NCBI GenBank assembly: GCA_963790475.1
Contig: CAWBOS010000006.1
Location: 640,001 to 704,000, forward strand
DNA length: 64,000 nt
Direction: 5' to 3'
DNA from: an uncultured delta proteobacterium
GTDB taxonomy: Bacteria; Desulfobacterota; RBG-13-43-22
Position 1 is the stretch's first letter. Each line of letters begins with the position of its first letter. The position numbers and the translations under genes are program-made. Shown one piece after another: positions 16,034 through 63,039 of this stretch. A model generated the notes under the pieces. The model ran no database searches. It was not told where the DNA came from and saw nothing but the letters and a program-made list of their open reading frames with translations.

Positions 16034-17245
16034 TTAGATTTTCGGGCGAAACCTTCGGTCATATCCGGTCATTTCCACATATCCGTTCCCGGTCACGGTC
16101 CGACCTTTATAGATTCCCTTCACTTTTACGATACCTTCCCAGTAAGTGATGCCGGTACTTTTGGGGGTCATCAATTCTTGATCGGTCATCAAGGGAACCA
16201 GTTCCAGCCGTAGATCGTGCTGCGGAAAATAAACCTCCCAGGAAGCAGGATAGGAGGCGCCGCTACGGGAACTTTTCCAAAAGTTTAATACCCGGAGATC
16301 GAAATCAGATAATAAAAGATGAATAGGGCGGTAATCAGGTCCGGCCATGGTCCCGCTGGAGTTCGGGTCCACCTGGCCATCCTCATGGCGCAGCTGATAA
16401 ATCATCAGATCCATCCCATTATCAAGCTGAACGGAGAACCAGTCCCATCCGATTTGTGTATCCTGAAGTTGATTACTGCCGAACTCATGGTCCATCCAGC
16501 TAATTCCGGTGACCGGAATTTCTTTCCCCTTGATTTTTAAAATCCCCTTGGTTTCCATTCGGGTCATGGAATAATAATGGGAGGCCCGGCCGGCCCCGGA
16601 CCCTTTCTGGACAACTCCATTAATCCCGTGAATCAGGGGAGGGCCGGTCGGGATAATTTTGAGGGAAACGGAAAGATCAGCATCACCGGCCTGTATATGA
16701 TGTCCTTTTCCCTCTTCGATCACTTTCCAGTTTTCCACCCAGATCCGATATTGATCGGCATCCGCCCCGGCCAATCCTAAATTGCCCCGGTCGGCCTTTT
16801 CCTGATAAAGGAATTTTTTATTACTAATGTCGGAAACTGCCAGATGGGCCAAATAGACATCCCGGATGCGCCAGCGGGAGCCTTCCGGCGGCAGCGGACC
16901 CGGGATCAATCCCACCCGGAAAAAAGTGACCTGATACCCGAAGCTCTCTCCTCCAGGACCCTTGAGATACCCGTTGTAATACCACCATTCAGTCTTGAAT
17001 TCCCGGTGCACCCGGTGATCTCTGGGAAATTCATACTTCCAACCGGGGAGGGCCGGTTTGAAGCCGGGCATTTCGCCGGCAATGGTCCGGGAGGCGACTA
17101 TCAACAAGAAAAGAATGATAAAAAGGAAACGGAGATGCGGAGACGCGGAGACTCGGAGAGGGTCATTCCCCGTTTCTCCCCTTCTCCGTTTCTCCCCTTC
17201 TAAGAATCGCCCCGTCTTCGTGTTATTCTTCGTCATGCCATTCAT
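16034..17245 (-). CDS. AttH/CrtC-like secreted lipocalin-fold protein
   Basis: FPRDH..H..F.TEWWY, SWMDHEFGS, GWDWFSVQL, YWEG, GYVEMTGY. Start is 17245 or 17236. Confidence 0.88.
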   Translation of the reverse strand: MNGMTKNNTKTGRFLEGEKRRRGETGNDPLRVSASPHLRFLFIILFLLIVASRTIAGEMPGFKPALPGWKYEFPRDHRVHREFKTEWWYYNGYLKGPGGESFGYQVTFFRVGLIPGPLPPEGSRWRIRDVYLAHLAVSDISNKKFLYQEKADRGNLGLAGADADQYRIWVENWKVIEEGKGHHIQAGDADLSVSLKIIPTGPPLIHGINGVVQKGSGAGRASHYYSMTRMETKGILKIKGKEIPVTGISWMDHEFGSNQLQDTQIGWDWFSVQLDNGMDLMIYQLRHEDGQVDPNSSGTMAGPDYRPIHLLLSDFDLRVLNFWKSSRSGASYPASWEVYFPQHDLRLELVPLMTDQELMTPKSTGITYWEGIVKVKGIYKGRTVTGNGYVEMTGYDRRFRPKI

Positions 17246-17292
17246 CTCCCCGTCACCGCCTCTCTCCCTCTCCGTGTCTCCGTGTCCGCCCC
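17129..17292. repeat. Inverted 8-mer tandem repeat arms (ACGGAGAC-type), no enclosed gene
   Basis: acggagatgcggagacgcggagactcggag ... ccccgtttctccccttctccgtttctcccc ... catctccccgtcaccg ... ccgtgtctccgtgtc. Confidence 0.8.
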
Positions 17293-17293
17293 C

Positions 17294-19870
17294 TCATTCC
17301 TCCCGGATCATTTCCCGGGTACTCTTCCGTGCGGCCATGGCGGCAGGAATCCAGCCGGAAAGTAGGGAACCCAGGACTATGATGCCCAGGGTTTGGAGAT
17401 AAATCAGCCAGGACCAATGAAAAGGGATGGTCCAACCAAAGGATTGTTTATTGATAACATAGATCAGGATCAGCGACATAAATGTTCCGGCGATCCCTCC
17501 CCAGATAAAGCTGAAAAGACCCATCAGGGTAGTTTCCGTCAAGATCATCCGACGGATTTGGCCCGGCAAAGCCCCCAGGGCTTTAAGTATCCCCAATTCC
17601 TTCTCTCGAAAAAGAATGGAAATGGAACTGGAATGGAGGATACCCAAAAAGGCCACCAGGATGGCAATGGCCTCCAGGACATAGGTGATCTGGAAGGTTT
17701 GATCAAAAATATTCAGGATCTGGTCTCTCAACTCCTTGTTGGAAATGATCACCAGGGAAACCCGTCCGGCAAATCTTTTATTAATCGACTCCCGAACCTG
17801 ATGGATCCGGGCCGGGTCTTTCAGATAAACGCGCACCCCGTTGATCCGAGGATCCTTCCAATATTTAAGGAAAAGATGCCGATCCATCCAGACCGCCCCC
17901 CCCTCGGTCCGGTAATCATAAAATATCCCGGCCACCAAGAAAGGACGAGGCCCTTCGGCGGTCATCAGTTTAAGCCTGGCCCCTTGCTTCAGGCCCAGTT
18001 GGTTGGCCAGGACTTCGGAGACAAGGATGTCTTCTCCGGTCAGGGTTTTTTGAAAAATCTCTTCACTCTTTCCCCCGGTGAAAGCCAGTCCCCCATGACG
18101 CTCAATGACCGCCAGATCCCCTGACCAGAGTCGTACCGGAAAACCCTTCAACTCGGTGATCATTCCCCGGTATTTGTAAATCTCATCAATTTCTTTTATG
18201 CTTTCAATTTCCCGAAGGACCTCCGGCTGCAGGAACTGGGAAAAGGCCTGATTGGAAAGAGACACCGGTCCGACAAATAGATCGCCGCTGACCGATTGGC
18301 CGATCCAGTTATCCACCGCCTGCCGGAAGCTTCGGATCATCAGGCTGACACTGATCAGCATGGCAATGGCAATCATCAAGGCGGCCATGCCCACGGCCAT
18401 CCGACTCAAGTAACGGTTTATATAATTCACTCCCAGCCAGGCCGACAGTAAATTATTTTTCCCATGAAAGCCCAAAGATAAAATCCGGTTGATTCCTCCC
18501 CGAACGAAATCGGGCAATAAAAAAGAAAATCCCAGGGTCAGGGCCAGTGTGGCCGAGAATCCTCCGACAGGCCAGTTATTCCAAGGCGGAAGCCCGGTCA
18601 AAAGAAGGGCCAGACCGAGCAATCCCAATCCCCGGTAGAGATTTTTCCGGTTTCGTTTTCGTCCCAGATCGATCAACCCCGGTCTCTGATAAATAACCTC
18701 ACGGGGTTCGAGTTTGGCCGCTTGCCTGGCCGGAATATAGGCCGAGGCCACGGAAAAGAGCATGGAAAAGAAAATCATTAACCCGGCTTCCCAAAAAGAG
18801 AAAGGGATTGCCCTGACTCCGATCAGGACATACAAGTTGGTGATGGTTCGGGAGACGGTTTCCAAAAGAAGCCCGGCCAGCAAGGTCCCTCCGCCAACGC
18901 CTATCAGTCCGCCGATCAGTCCAAAACCCGCGGCTTCAAGAAGGACCAAAAGCAGGACCTGTCCGGGCAGCATCCCGAGAGATCTTAAGATCCCCAATTC
19001 CTTTCGCCTCCGGACTACGGAAAGGGAAGCGGTATTGTAAATAAGATACATACTGACCAGCACGGCAATAAAACTCAAAGCCGTCAGATTCAATTGATAA
19101 GAATGGATCATTCGTTCCGTCCCTTTTTCCCGATCGGCCGGCTGGATCAGACGGACCCCCCGGGGAATGACTTTTTCCAGTTCCCGAATCTGGTTACTTT
19201 CTGTCCCCCCTTCCTTCAACAAAAGGTCAATGCGATCCAGGACTCCGATTTTTCCAAAAATCTCTTGGGCCTGGGCGATATCCATGAGACCAAAATGGCC
19301 TTCCAAAGCCTGAGCCGGCCCTTCGGCTTCCATAAGCACGGCAACCGTCAGTTTTTTAGGAAGTCCATTGACCAGGATGGTCAAGACGTCCCCTTTTTTG
19401 ATTCCATAACGCGCGGCGAAAACTCGGGTAAGGCCGATGGACCGGGGGATGGTCAACAAAGACAGCAACTCCTCTCCCTTTAATGAAGAAAGGGAATCGG
19501 AATAGCGGCGGATTCCGGCTTCGGAAAAGAAATCCACCCCCATGATCCAGATCATTTGATCAGGCCAACGGGACAGGGAGGCCTTAAACTCGACCACCGG
19601 GGCGGCTGCCTGAATAACCGGGTGTGTTTTTATGATCGGGAAGAGGCGCTCATCGATTTCTCTCCCTTCCTGAACAAGCTGCCACCCCGCCTTCCCTGAA
19701 AGGGCCTGAACCGTATTTTTAAAAGACTTTATGGAGGCGCCCACGGTAAGATGGATACTGACAAAAACCGAAACCCCTAAGGCCAGACCCAAAATAATCA
19801 AAAGGGATTGGCGCCAGGACTGGAGATAGTGGCGAAAAATAAAAAGGGAATAGACACGTGGGGAAGCCAT
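17294..19870 (-). CDS. FtsX/MacB-like ABC transporter permease (AttF/G-like, duplicated)
   Basis: Two permease halves; SVVRRRKELGILRSLG and FREKELGILKALG. Confidence 0.92.
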   Translation of the reverse strand: MASPRVYSLFIFRHYLQSWRQSLLIILGLALGVSVFVSIHLTVGASIKSFKNTVQALSGKAGWQLVQEGREIDERLFPIIKTHPVIQAAAPVVEFKASLSRWPDQMIWIMGVDFFSEAGIRRYSDSLSSLKGEELLSLLTIPRSIGLTRVFAARYGIKKGDVLTILVNGLPKKLTVAVLMEAEGPAQALEGHFGLMDIAQAQEIFGKIGVLDRIDLLLKEGGTESNQIRELEKVIPRGVRLIQPADREKGTERMIHSYQLNLTALSFIAVLVSMYLIYNTASLSVVRRRKELGILRSLGMLPGQVLLLVLLEAAGFGLIGGLIGVGGGTLLAGLLLETVSRTITNLYVLIGVRAIPFSFWEAGLMIFFSMLFSVASAYIPARQAAKLEPREVIYQRPGLIDLGRKRNRKNLYRGLGLLGLALLLTGLPPWNNWPVGGFSATLALTLGFSFLLPDFVRGGINRILSLGFHGKNNLLSAWLGVNYINRYLSRMAVGMAALMIAIAMLISVSLMIRSFRQAVDNWIGQSVSGDLFVGPVSLSNQAFSQFLQPEVLREIESIKEIDEIYKYRGMITELKGFPVRLWSGDLAVIERHGGLAFTGGKSEEIFQKTLTGEDILVSEVLANQLGLKQGARLKLMTAEGPRPFLVAGIFYDYRTEGGAVWMDRHLFLKYWKDPRINGVRVYLKDPARIHQVRESINKRFAGRVSLVIISNKELRDQILNIFDQTFQITYVLEAIAILVAFLGILHSSSISILFREKELGILKALGALPGQIRRMILTETTLMGLFSFIWGGIAGTFMSLILIYVINKQSFGWTIPFHWSWLIYLQTLGIIVLGSLLSGWIPAAMAARKSTREMIREE

Positions 19871-19980
19871 GGGTTATAGCCAAAAGGGAATGATGACTGA
19901 CCTAAGAGACCCGATGCCAGATGAATCCCTCCAATTCGCCAAATAAAATCTTGGCATCAACCATTTTCTTTCATTGGGCA

Positions 19981-20655
19981 TCATGAATCTTGAATTTTCC
20001 CATCCTTCAACTTGATGATTCGATTGGCCAGGGCATCGGCCTCCCGGGAATGGGTGGCGATGATAATCGTTTGTCCCTGTTTACGATTTAAATCCTTCAT
20101 AACCGAAAGTACTTGTAAACCGGTCTGGGAATCGAGGTTTCCGGTAGGCTCGTCGGCCAGGATGACCTTTGGTGAATTAATCAAGGCTCGGGCGATGGCC
20201 ACCCGCTGCTGTTCTCCTCCCGATAATTCATGGGCACGGTGGTTTCTCCGATGGCTCAGTTCCACCTGCTTCAAAAGATTTTCAACCTTGGGACGGACAT
20301 CCTCCTGAGGAAAGCCATCCAACCAGCGAGGCAGGGCAATATTTTCTTCCACCGTCAGCATGGGAATCAAATTAAAAGACTGGAAGATGGTTCCCACCTC
20401 CCGCCGCCGGAAAAGGGTCCGTTCCTTTTCTGAAAGGGGGCATATATTTTTCCCTCCCACCCAAACCTCTCCAGAGGTAGGCTGGTCCAAGGCCCCGATC
20501 AGGTTTAACAAGGTCGTTTTCCCGCAGCCGCTCTTCCCGGAAAGGATGATCATTTCTCCCGAATCAACGCACAGATCGATCCCCTGCAAGGCCCGTACTT
20601 CCCCGGCCTCGGTGGGGTAGGATTTGGAAACGTTCTTAAGTTCAATCAACGACAT
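19981..20655 (-). CDS. ABC transporter ATP-binding protein (LolD/AttE-like)
   Basis: [33 protein letters not shown]; likely start MSLIELKNV at 20655. Confidence 0.95.
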
Positions 20656-20665
20656 AAAAAAACCT

Positions 20666-20726
20666 GTGACGGGTAACGAGTGACGAAAAAAATGACACGG
20701 AGACACGGGGATTGGGTGACACGAGG
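20666..20726. repeat. Downstream 8-mer tandem repeat arm of the four-helix-bundle gene
   Basis: gtgacgggtaacgagtgacg...gacacggagacacggggattgggtgacacgagg. Confidence 0.8.
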
Positions 20727-20787
20727 AAAACTTCCTTCCTCGTCTCCGGGTCCTCCTGTCTATTCCCTTTCATCAAATTGTAACTTT

Positions 20788-21165
20788 TTATCCAATCTTC
20801 CAATGCTCGGGATTGGAAATCATCTTTACCAATTTGCCTTGAATCTGGTCATAAATCCGATCTATTTCTTTGAAAAATATATTATCAATGTAACCACATC
20901 GGAAACAAAATTCAAGCCAGACTTGCGTTTCCGCAGCTTCCGCCTCGGCATCACTCAGTTTGCTGACGAAAGCATTCGGGTAACGCCTTTTTCGCCAGGC
21001 TTCAGCGATGTTTGCACATACGGAACGTGATGAACGTCTTATCTGATCCGTGAGTGAATATCTTTCTTCTATTGGGAAACTTTTGCTGGTCTCAAAAATT
21101 CTCAAAGCCCCCGCTCTGGCCAACAGATAAACCTCTAATTCCCTAAAGTGACGAATAGTTGTCAT
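20788..21165 (-). CDS. Four helix bundle protein (23S rRNA IVS protein / bAvd-like family)
   Basis: FRELEVY, FPIEERYSLTDQIRRSSRSVCANIAEAW, EAAETQVWL. Confidence 0.93.
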   Translation of the reverse strand: MTTIRHFRELEVYLLARAGALRIFETSKSFPIEERYSLTDQIRRSSRSVCANIAEAWRKRRYPNAFVSKLSDAEAEAAETQVWLEFCFRCGYIDNIFFKEIDRIYDQIQGKLVKMISNPEHWKIG

Positions 21166-21167
21166 TT

Positions 21168-21210
21168 CCCTCCCCCTCCCCGCATCTCCCCGTCACCGTG
21201 TCTCCGTGTC
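21168..21210. repeat. Upstream 8-mer tandem repeat arm of the four-helix-bundle gene
   Basis: ccccgcatctccccgtcaccgtgtctccgtgtc; 21196-21210 is the exact reverse complement of 20694-20708. Confidence 0.85.
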
Positions 21211-21233
21211 TTTCTATACACGGGAAACTTTTA

Positions 21234-22220
21234 TCAAACCATCCATCTTTTGAATTCTTCTTTGGGTGTCTTGGTCACATAAACCTCCCACTCCCGATCC
21301 CCTTGTCCCAATCGGACCGAAACAATCCGGTCTCCGGGGGCGTCGCTATAGGTCAGGCAGAGGTTGGCCAGCTTTTCCCAATCTTCCGGCCTTGCAATTT
21401 TTCCTATGGCCAGGGCCATGGGGCCGGGATGACCCATCACGCGGGCCCAGCCGTCTTCAGGATCAACCCATTTTTCGATAAATTCATTTTCTTTTTGGTT
21501 TCTCCCGATAATCACTTTGTTCTTGGAATCCAAACGAAAATGTCGGCCGGCTTTTAGAAGCTCCACTTCCCTTAAGGGAGGGTCCGGAGCGTGGGAAAAC
21601 AGTTCTTTCAGCCGGATGGAGAAGATGGGATCGGTTAAAAGACATCCCCCGGCCGGAGCAGGATAATCATTTAGTCCATACCCTTCGGCCAGGGCCATTT
21701 GCCGCTTTCGAGACCGTCCATGGATATCTAATAACCGGGAACGGTCCACCAAGCCTTCCTGCTCCGGCTTCGTTTCTTTTAGAAGGAGGGCGCTCAGGGG
21801 CCGAAGAATACGGTCAAGATGGCCGGATTCCTTTTCGACCGCCCGCAGAGATGGTTTGGTTTGAGAAAACGGTCTTTGTCCGAGGACCTCTCCGGTAAAA
21901 ATAAAATCAGCCTGAATTTCTTTCAAGTACTCTCCGGCTTTTCGAACCATGAGGGCATGGCAATCGATACAGGGGTTCATCCCCTTCCCGTAGCCGTATC
22001 GGGGCGACTTAAGCATCCCCCAATGGTCCCGGGTGATATCCAGGACCTTCAAAGGAATTTTCAATTGCTCCGCCGCCCGCATCGCCTTTTCCGCCCCGAA
22101 GAAAAGAGTGACAAAGGAAACCCCTGTGACCTGAATCCCCTGATCTAAAATGACTCGGGCGGCCAGCATACTATCCAGGCCGCCCGAGAGTAAGCCGATA
22201 GCAGTTATCGAACGTTTCAT
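21234..22220 (-). CDS. ThiI/MnmA-like PP-loop tRNA thiolation protein lacking THUMP domain
   Basis: SGGLDS, NPCIDCH, GEVLGQRPFSQ, AGGCLLT. Confidence 0.85.
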   Translation of the reverse strand: MKRSITAIGLLSGGLDSMLAARVILDQGIQVTGVSFVTLFFGAEKAMRAAEQLKIPLKVLDITRDHWGMLKSPRYGYGKGMNPCIDCHALMVRKAGEYLKEIQADFIFTGEVLGQRPFSQTKPSLRAVEKESGHLDRILRPLSALLLKETKPEQEGLVDRSRLLDIHGRSRKRQMALAEGYGLNDYPAPAGGCLLTDPIFSIRLKELFSHAPDPPLREVELLKAGRHFRLDSKNKVIIGRNQKENEFIEKWVDPEDGWARVMGHPGPMALAIGKIARPEDWEKLANLCLTYSDAPGDRIVSVRLGQGDREWEVYVTKTPKEEFKRWMV

Positions 22221-22238: not shown

Positions 22239-22637
22239 TCACGCCCTCACCGATACCAGAATACATCGGCAACCGATATGCATGATCGTTTCATTAAGGA
22301 GATCGTATTCTCCAAAGGAAAAGATACGATTTTCCATCTTTTGGCAGTCCGGACAAACCAGGTTATCGCTTCGGGTCTCCCAACGAAGTCCGGCCAATTG
22401 TGTCCTCCGGGCATCGTATATTACCCGGCGCCAGACAGCTCTTTTCTCGATTTCCAGGCTTTTGGCTTTTTCCAGGGACATGGCACCCTTATAAGGCAAG
22501 TGATAATACCATTGCGGGTCCCGAACCATCAAACCTTCCATCTCCAAATGGGCGGCTTTCAAAAAATCCTGAAAATTTCTATTGCCTCCGGCGGATTTTT
22601 TTTCTTTTTTTTCTTTATCTCTTTTCCAAAACGGCAT
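22239..22637 (-). CDS. Hypothetical protein with MuF/phage head morphogenesis-like Cys/His motif
   Basis: W-x-T-x-x-D-x-x-VCPDC ... HIGCRC. Confidence 0.65.
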   Translation of the reverse strand: MPFWKRDKEKKEKKSAGGNRNFQDFLKAAHLEMEGLMVRDPQWYYHLPYKGAMSLEKAKSLEIEKRAVWRRVIYDARRTQLAGLRWETRSDNLVCPDCQKMENRIFSFGEYDLLNETIMHIGCRCILVSVRA

Positions 22638-61469: not shown

Positions 61470-61632
61470 GGTTGGTCTGGTCAATTCGGTCAATTCAGTC
61501 TATTTGGTCTGTCTGGTCTGTTTGGTTTTTTGGGTTTAACGTGAAGCCTGAAACGTAAGGAGTAAGGAGTGAGCATTATTTTTTTGCAACCCTAGCCTAT
61601 AGCCTTACGCCTCTGCCTCTGGCCTCTTGCCT
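61470..61632. repeat. Intergenic 9-mer and inverted 7-mer tandem repeats
   Basis: tctatttggtctgtctggtctgtttgg; cgtaaggagtaaggagtgag ... gccttacgcctctgcctctggcctcttgcc. Confidence 0.7.
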
Positions 61633-62958: not shown

Positions 62959-63039
62959 GTTACGAGTTGCGGGTTACGGGTTACGGGTTGGGAAATCAAA
63001 TTCTTTTTTGTCCTCAACCCGTAAGCCGCAACCCGCAAC
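62959..63039. repeat. Inverted 7-mer tandem repeat arms (GTTACGG / CCGCAAC)
   Basis: gttacgagttgcgggttacgggttacgggttg ... caacccgtaagccgcaacccgcaac. Confidence 0.85.

Follow-up and report, generated by a model that had tools for sequence, protein, structure and literature searches.

The gene designated here FHB-A and its cognate inverted repeat arms make up a discrete cassette, which was inserted en bloc between two protein-coding genes that otherwise abut and is polymorphic and exchangeable within its genus. The cassette was analysed in a stretch of 64,000 nt (the window) that corresponds to positions 640,001 to 704,000 of contig CAWBOS010000006.1 of an uncultured delta proteobacterium, and the coordinates given below are those of the window.

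FHB-A is an ORF of 125 aa on the minus strand (20788-21165). Its product matches the Pfam family PF05635 (23S_rRNA_IVP) with an E value of 8.8e-29 and a score of 100.3 bits against a cut-off of 33.8, covers positions 1-105 of the 106 positions of the profile, and has no other Pfam match. It is also similar in sequence to the PDB entries 2rld (E 3.2e-8) and 2gsc (E 7.6e-8), for each of which five chains were deposited. FHB-A is predicted to be a four-helix-bundle protein of the 23S rRNA-IVS/Avd-like family. The upstream neighbour (21234-22220, minus strand) encodes a thiI-like PP-loop ATPase with matches to NFACT-R_2 (1e-19), ThiI (3.2e-10) and tRNA_Me_trans (9.6e-8); the RNA-binding domain NFACT-R_2 is located at the C-terminus, and the orthologues in 18 relatives of the same family are 67-87% identical. 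The downstream neighbour (19981-20655, minus strand) encodes an ABC transporter ATPase (PF00005, 6.5e-37) and is followed on its 3' side by the gene of an FtsX/MacB-type permease (17294-19870, minus strand; FtsX 8.1e-35, MacB_PCD 2.3e-14). Both the thiI-like gene and the ABC ATPase gene are co-oriented with FHB-A, and the Pfam matches of the three products agree with the original prediction, made from the bare sequence, of a 125-aa four-helix-bundle gene between two co-oriented but unrelated genes. That prediction had placed the element at 20666-21210. The whole insert is larger: it is bounded on the left by the thiI-like stop codon and on the right by the ABC ATG (20655-20653), extends over 20656-21233, and gives a thiI-ABC gap of 581 nt. 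No transposase was recognised within the 581-nt insert, as had been stated.

Degenerate 8-mer arrays in inverted orientation had been proposed to flank the gene, and the repeat search and TRF agree on them. The repeat search returned an inverted pair of 37-nt arms (20691-20727 and 21177-21213) with 449 nt between them, and TRF a period-8 array at 21192-21211. The arms are just 78% complementary, and the stem that they can form is imperfect. A 15-mer in the arms, GACACGGAGACACGG (20694-20708, plus strand), had been claimed to be the exact reverse complement of 21196-21210, and direct reading of the sequence bears this out. The 5' arm of the cassette (21177-21213, minus strand), seen as part of the inverted pair and by TRF, repeats a purine-rich 8-nt unit of the GACACGGA type about 4.5 times and decays at its end into GGAGGG, a putative Shine-Dalgarno sequence 3 nt ahead of the FHB-A ATG; the ribosome-binding motif that the upstream arm was said to supply is thus in place. 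The 3' arm (20691-20727, minus strand), recognised from the inverted pair and by reading, is an array rich in pyrimidines that complements the 5' arm, and is followed by seven T on the gene strand. The arrays, with about 4-5 copies each, sit near the start and stop codons of FHB-A, and the purine-rich arm is the 5' arm whichever DNA strand carries the cassette. With up to two mismatches allowed, the motif GAGACRCGGAGAC occurs 12 times in the window, compared with a mean of 1.38 in shuffled sequences, and none of 100 shuffles reached 12.

Other structures lie next to the arms. At the 5' edge of the insert, a small local hairpin (21203-21224, minus strand) appears in the MFE fold, and as a stem-loop on the plus strand in the terminator scan; in this hairpin the first repeat units pair with a short complementary stretch directly after the thiI-like stop codon. 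A short internal hairpin (20718-20746, minus strand), with 11-nt arms that are 91% complementary and a loop of 7 nt, is present downstream of the stop codon, ahead of the 3' arm, in both the MFE and the centroid structures. Beyond the 3' arm, alignment of the junctions by eye revealed an outer remnant (20656-20690, minus strand) in which the complement of the 7-nt unit GTGACGR occurs two to three times, with a second run of seven T after it that abuts the ATG of the ABC gene. The 3' edge at 20663-20685 is the remnant of an arm whose 7-nt unit is unlike the 8-nt unit of the FHB-A arms.

Inverted flanks were scored by aligning locally the 200 nt ahead of a gene with the reverse-complemented 200 nt that follow it, and taking the best alignment. 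As the control, 3000 random placements in the host genome were scored in the same way; their mean was 16.7, and their 99th and 99.9th percentiles were 24 and 29. The FHB-A locus scored 34. Chance or generic repeat DNA was ruled out, since only 1 of the 3000 random placements reached this score. The host genome (6.34 Mb, 20 contigs) contains 13 PF05635 matches, and a survey of arms around all four-helix-bundle genes, which the original prediction had called for, showed that the paralogs are armed too: 10 of the 13 have inverted flanks scoring at or above 24, the 99th percentile. One of the three failing loci has degenerate G-rich/C-rich flanks and the other two are distant family members. The paralogs are 13-30% identical to FHB-A, and every one has its own unit, for example GGCTATAG, AGACCAAAC, AGTTCGG, AGGACTG, GATTGAT or CTGGATA. 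Because the units differ, the cassettes are not copies of one transposon with common ends; a single transposon family with common termini, such as an IS or MITE, was accordingly excluded. What recurs, with differing sequences, is the repeat-armed PF05635 architecture. Among 13 genus relatives and a phylum sample of 150 genomes, 37 of 51 usable loci scored at least 24 and 30 at least 29, by a threshold that was set on the host genome and applied to genomes of other base composition; 4 further loci with short flanks were left out.

The thiI-ABC junction was compared in relatives, as a site that might be filled in some genomes and empty in others. Forty relatives were searched with the thiI-like protein, and thiI, the ABC ATPase and FHB-A were located in the 30 loci returned. 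In four relatives (G004, G013, G009 and G001) the junction is empty and the genes abut with a gap of 3-4 nt; in G003 they abut with a gap of about 4 nt and the ABC gene is truncated. Other genera of the family (G014, G016, G017, G018 and G019) also lack an insert, with gaps of -4 to 66 nt. Besides the host genome (G000; gap 581 nt), FHB-A occupies the junction in G012 (gap 638 nt), where it is 78% identical and a TGG codon has become an in-frame TGA. The junction of three relatives is occupied by FHB-B, a different, weaker PF05635 member (E 7e-10 to 8e-10; gap 496-581 nt), which is intact in G011, has an altered C-terminus in G007 and is split by another small insertion in G006. In G010 the site contains an ORF-less hairpin of yet another unit (gap 154 nt). 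The comparison thus yielded the presence/absence polymorphism that had been looked for and, in addition, an exchange of cargo. As the gene is broken in three of the five other filled junctions, by a stop in G012, a frameshift in G007 and an insertion in G006, the cassettes decay readily.

A maximum-likelihood tree of the single gene thiI (984 columns, midpoint root) placed genomes with different contents of the junction in one clade with support of 97/99, namely G000 (FHB-A), G010 (ORF-less hairpin), G004 (empty), and the sister pair G011 (FHB-B) and G012 (FHB-A). Precise loss, repeated insertion and homologous exchange mediated by the flanks would all be compatible with this single-gene tree, and homologous recombination via the conserved flanking genes could equally produce the pattern of gain and loss. 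No target-site duplication was visible when filled and empty junctions were compared. By-eye alignment of six junction sequences (L014, L015, L016, L018, L023 and L025) showed that a remnant of the GTGACGR complement with a T-run beside the ABC start is common to all filled sites and G010. In FHB-B cassettes GTGACGR arms stand at either end; FHB-A cassettes have 8-mer arms of their own, placed inside the GTGACGR remnant. The position of FHB-A within the remnant reads as a nested or successive occupation of one site.

The relation between protein and repeat unit was analysed in 80 loci of FHB-A relatives with 56-69% identity, found by scanning one genome per species and derived from Chloroflexota, Verrucomicrobiota, Cyanobacteria, Acidobacteriota, Bacteroidota, Gemmatimonadota, Planctomycetota, Nitrospira and others. 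After 6 loci with short flanks were left out, 58 of the 74 usable loci had inverted flanks scoring at least 24, and 49 of these 58 had a dominant period of 8 nt in both arms. A mixed PF05635 sample with 47 armed loci had a period of 7 nt in 33 and of 8 nt in 8. The phase-aligned logo of 106 period-8 arrays reads G (.79), G (.84), N, G (.88), A (.66), N, N, S; the core GG.GA occurs 0.60 times per 8 nt in FHB-A-type arrays, compared with 0.25 in shuffled arrays and 0.09 in arms of other subfamilies. FHB-A-type arrays have a median of 4.4 copies, or about 34 nt. Protein identity and unit similarity were correlated in a Mantel test (r -0.196; 0 of 2000 permutations), although such tests of subfamily against unit overstate independence because protein and arms are co-inherited among relatives. 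Neutral flanks would be expected to be randomised at about 60% protein identity across phyla. At the level of sequence, the type of repeat unit was shown to follow the protein subfamily across phyla, and part of this link could be due to inheritance of whole cassettes.

The two arms of a locus covary. The mean cyclic distance between units was 1.77 within the same locus and 3.24 between loci in the FHB-A set, and 1.40 and 3.52, respectively, in the 7-mer set, values that were reached in 0 of 5000 permutations in either case. Within a subfamily, loci differ at the variable positions of the unit, whereas the arms of any one locus agree there. Between the host genome and G012 both arms have changed, from GACACGG/CCGTGTC to GACGCGG/CCGCGTC.

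The 578-nt sense RNA of the insert has a predicted MFE of -184.9 kcal/mol, compared with -157.1 ± 5.9 kcal/mol for shuffled sequences (z -4.7), and none of 100 shuffles was as stable. In both the MFE and the centroid structures a long-range stem of the 5' arm with the 3' arm and the outer remnant closes the ORF; within the MFE fold the outer remnant pairs with GUGACGG of the 5' arm. The notion that arms and ORF form a self-contained element that folds into a long stem-loop and may be excised, processed or mobilised is in part supported by these predictions. The loop is about 450 nt long. Seven T stand 3' of the 3' arm and again 3' of the outer remnant, and in relatives the left arms have A-runs before them. 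No sigma-70-like promoter was predicted inside the cassette, where the scan counts were not above those of shuffles. No Rfam family and no rRNA model matched within 16800-21600, and a location inside rRNA was likewise not found in the host genome for the other 12 PF05635 paralogs, none of which has an Rfam rRNA match within 1.5 kb.

We consider the chances about even that 20656-21233 is an IVS-type cassette in an mRNA operon, the transcript of which would form an RNase III-type stem and the protein of which would recognise the repeat. Transcription would be by read-through from the operon, since no promoter of its own was predicted. Pairing of the arms in the transcript would give an imperfect stem, about 35 bp long, which would enclose the FHB-A mRNA and mask its Shine-Dalgarno sequence, and this stem may be a substrate of RNase III, by analogy with the intervening sequence of Coxiella 23S rRNA; an RNase III gene is encoded in the host genome. 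The FHB protein is expected to be pentameric, judging from the five chains in 2rld and 2gsc (Lin et al. 2006, cited in the available part of PMC4990558), and the pentamer probably recognises the repeat unit, with roughly one unit per subunit. Such recognition would give FHB control of its own processing and translation, and would also account for the uniformity of the arms.

An RNA-specific pairing signal, that is, an excess of G:U, was absent among the arm mismatches of 47 loci, where the sense strand has 41 G:U compared with 50 A:C (p 0.40) and 98 transversions. As G:U would be expected under selection for a stem in the sense RNA, these counts argue against a purely RNA-level reading. The duplex energies of whole flanks lean weakly to the sense strand (31 vs 16, p 0.04), but they are not arm-specific, at about -100 kcal/mol for 200-nt flanks.

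The missing G:U bias suits a structure at the DNA level, as in an explanation resembling the REP/RAYT system, which we regard as unlikely: FHB would bind its cognate DNA hairpins in trans and spread copies with and without the ORF by means of host enzymes, and the cassette would be the master copy. Copies without an ORF are indeed numerous. TRF found 3485 short arrays in the host genome, most commonly of period 7 (1148 arrays); when arrays within 1.5 kb were paired, 116 pairs were inverted and 57 direct, and they included 83 non-overlapping ORF-less hairpins with loops of at most 160 nt. These counts rest on TRF-based array pairing in place of a genome-wide scan for the unit over 16 nt (up to two mismatches), which gave 161 arrays compared with 174 in shuffled sequence and in which only the longer inverted pairs stood out. 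The purine-rich arm comes first in 69 of the 83 hairpins, as it does in the cassettes. The unit AGTTCGG, present in one FHB copy, has at least 12 ORF-less copies, the 8-nt unit of FHB-A has about 6, and some units that are only ORF-less in the host genome flank FHB genes in genus relatives. One ORF-less hairpin with the FHB-A-type 8-nt unit (17126-17289, minus strand), found by array pairing and the motif scan, lies in the same operon as FHB-A, 3.4 kb downstream, between the permease gene and the gene of a CrtC-type lipocalin. The 5' arm of this hairpin is homologous to that of FHB-A (alignment score 52, shuffle maximum 34). At this intergenic site, different hairpin types replace each other in the 10 genus relatives examined. 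The ORF-less hairpin at 17126-17289 gave only sub-threshold, miRNA-like Rfam matches. Against spreading by a DNA route stand the absence of any detected nuclease, recombinase or HUH motif in FHB-A, with PF05635 as its sole Pfam match; the degeneration of the ORF-less copies of one unit, which argues against a recent burst; and the lack of a visible target-site duplication at the junction.

The same hairpins could alternatively have no functional tie to the protein, being terminator-like or REP-like intergenic structures in whose loops PF05635 genes merely land or survive. This we find quite unlikely, although ORF-less hairpins far outnumber cassettes and are mostly located between co-oriented long ORFs (64 of 83, with 7 convergent and 7 divergent), a T-run follows 24 of the 83 compared with 9% of random positions, and what surrounds FHB-A at this junction is left over from an older element with GTGACGR arms. 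However, FHB-A carried its own 8-mer arms into this site with the older 7-mer arms, and the period and the GGNGA core track the protein subfamily across phyla despite the divergence of the proteins. Nor does the terminator scan favour it: the scan predicted no canonical terminator within the cassette, listed none that spans the arms, and found terminator-like sites in the region to be no more numerous than in shuffles.

Retro-mobility, in which the RNA bounded by the stem would be excised and copied by a reverse transcriptase in trans, with FHB as an Avd-like cofactor, and the cDNA would integrate at hairpins or junctions, seems very improbable. According to the available part of one report, PF05635 is homologous to Avd, an accessory protein of DGRs that retrohoming requires (PMC10053308). 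The host genome has 9 RVT_1 matches, and the insert reaches exactly from stop to start without target duplication, which would suit such a route. However, none of the 13 PF05635 matches has an RT gene in its vicinity, so that membership in a DGR was excluded; none of the 9 RVT_1 matches is near 660 kb on contig C6, and the closest pair of RT and PF05635 on the same contig is about 60 kb apart. Four of the RT matches have identical scores and an open frame of 488 aa each, which reads as a multi-copy element, perhaps a group II intron. No sequence mark of an RNA intermediate was found.

Beyond the IVS-type reading of this one locus, we put forward a wider proposal, which is tentative and which we consider rather unlikely. 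PF05635 proteins may be sequence-specific readers of tandem repeats, with a unit for each subfamily (here GGNGA every 8 nt) and about one unit per pentamer subunit. The cassette would then be the autonomous form of widespread, transposase-less structured repeats; its ORF-less derivatives would explain the excess of 7-8-nt repeats and hairpins in bacterial intergenic DNA, and the 23S IVS would be one landing site among others.

Structures have been solved for the large family PF05635, which to our knowledge has no known function outside DGRs. A gene and arms that behave as one cassette, gained, lost and swapped in ordinary operons, link this family with the rRNA intervening sequences and the abundant 7-8-nt repeats, and make binding of the repeat by FHB and cutting of the stem by RNase III testable questions. 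Since the insertion separates genes that abut or overlap in relatives (-4 to 66 nt), it probably rewires the expression of the downstream ABC transporter.

The cassette shares features with several known systems. In the REP/RAYT (REPIN) system, an HUH (IS200-like) transposase gene is accompanied by inverted cognate repeats and dispersed ORF-less copies. FHB-A likewise lies between inverted cognate repeats, with ORF-less hairpins dispersed in intergenic DNA, but it encodes a four-helix bundle without an HUH transposase domain, and in place of a single palindrome each arm has 7-9-nt units in tandem, with many different such units in one genome. Cyanobacterial STRRs are heptanucleotide short tandem repeats in intergenic DNA and resemble the intergenic 7-nt arrays seen here (1148 of 3485 in the host genome are of period 7); we know of no published link of STRRs to PF05635 genes or to inverted pairing. 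Integron cassettes, also considered, have an attC hairpin on one side of the ORF, unlike the two-armed FHB-A cassette. The accessory protein bAvd of DGRs, to which PF05635 is homologous by sequence and structure alignment in the available part of the report (PMC10053308), is a small helical protein as FHB-A is, but is encoded beside a DGR reverse transcriptase with template and variable repeats, whereas FHB-A has no adjacent reverse transcriptase and no pair of such repeats was seen; inverted repeat arrays around Avd genes are not mentioned in that part.

The closest resemblance is to the intervening sequences of 23S rRNA, the ORF-bearing forms of which are located at helix 9, 25 or 45. According to the available part of the report on Coxiella burnetii (PMC4990558), its 23S rRNA contains in helix 45 an IVS of 428 nt with the S23p ORF, closed by a 28-bp terminal stem that is cut in vitro by RNase III, and 2-3 tandem heptamers (GACAGAT), variable in number among strains, lie just upstream of the S23p start. 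The cut removes the AG-rich ribosome-binding region; S23p is probably not produced, and the RNA is unstable once excised (PMC4990558), so the processing is not necessarily of use to the protein. The same source also mentions 23S IVSs for Leptospira, Brucella and Xanthomonas, and terms rRNA intervening sequences selfish elements of unknown origin (PMC4990558). As far as this account goes, the FHB-A cassette and the 23S IVSs have in common a PF05635 protein, an ORF in the loop of a stem formed by terminal inverted repeats and a similar total size of about 430-580 nt, and with the Coxiella IVS in particular the cassette shares tandem short repeats directly before the start codon and an AG-rich ribosome-binding region within the arm. 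They differ in that the FHB-A cassette lies between protein-coding genes and not in 23S rRNA, in that the unit is 7 nt in Coxiella and 8 nt in the FHB-A arms, and in that RNase III cutting, seen in vitro for the former, would apply to the latter only by analogy. For Coxiella the heptamers are reported upstream; whether both arms are arrays is not stated in the available part (PMC4990558). Within the literature covered, which leaves subscription journals largely outside, no PF05635 cassette with repeat arms is described beyond rRNA. We rate the FHB-A cassette as an element of the rRNA-IVS type living in mRNA operons, with a layout that the literature covered describes for rRNA intervening sequences only.

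The longest ORF of the gene coding for the CrtC-type lipocalin (window 16034-17289) starts inside the ORF-less hairpin (window 17126-17289, minus strand), an inverted pair of short-repeat arrays that is built from the same type of 8-nt unit as the arms of FHB-A, the 125-aa PF05635 gene of the window, and that lies between this gene and one coding for an FtsX/MacB-type permease. The ATG of the longest ORF is preceded by a GGAG of the repeat, and the hairpin arms code for roughly the first 40 residues; a putative signal peptide appears to follow these hairpin-encoded residues. An ATG resembling this start is found at the same position in two genus relatives, G004 and G012. The repeat may be the source of the start site of the lipocalin gene downstream.

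Comparison of the permease-lipocalin intergenic site among genus relatives (loci L180-L189) showed that the type of inverted short-repeat hairpin varies by species, the units including GGAGACRC, GTGACGR, TGCGGATT and GATGATTGA, and that in some cases two or three hairpins are arranged in series.

Short-repeat arrays were also observed elsewhere in the window and in its genome of origin (G000). Six inverted array pairs with an 8-9-nt unit, CGCAAAGG, are located in G000 at C1:215365, C10:462449, C11:2392, C11:239137, C12:284585 and C13:501597, and their loops are highly uniform in size (126-147 nt). These pairs appear to form a dispersed element family of their own. Within the window, 5.4 copies of a 9-nt unit, TGGTCTATT, form an array at 61478-61526, and this unit is of the complement type of the arms at the PF05635 paralog C6:181088. 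The array at 62959-63039 is a GTTACGG/CAACCCG hairpin whose loop measures 25 nt. The PF05635 genes themselves are clustered in G000, where two pairs lie each within about 2-3 kb (C6:181088-183182 and C6:235797-238838), and six PF05635 matches were found in about 55 kb of contig C31 in the relative G010.

Upstream of the thiI-like gene, a 132-aa ORF (window 22239-22637) gave a weak match to Phage_Mu_F, with a score of 25.3 bits, which is below the cut-off of 29.6. Four reverse-transcriptase matches with identical scores, each in an open frame of 488 aa, were obtained in G000 (C10:897222, C13:44206, C13:214776 and C15:64698), and these are probably copies of a multi-copy group II intron. A small element distinct from the cassettes, with ends of the type cgtcattcccg...cgggaatgacg, interrupts the ORF of FHB-B, the different PF05635 gene occupying the thiI-ABC junction in some genus relatives, in G006 (L025), and is also located within the GATGATTGA hairpin of G009 (L186) and G013 (L189). 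This element resembles a MITE that inserts into these short-repeat hairpins.
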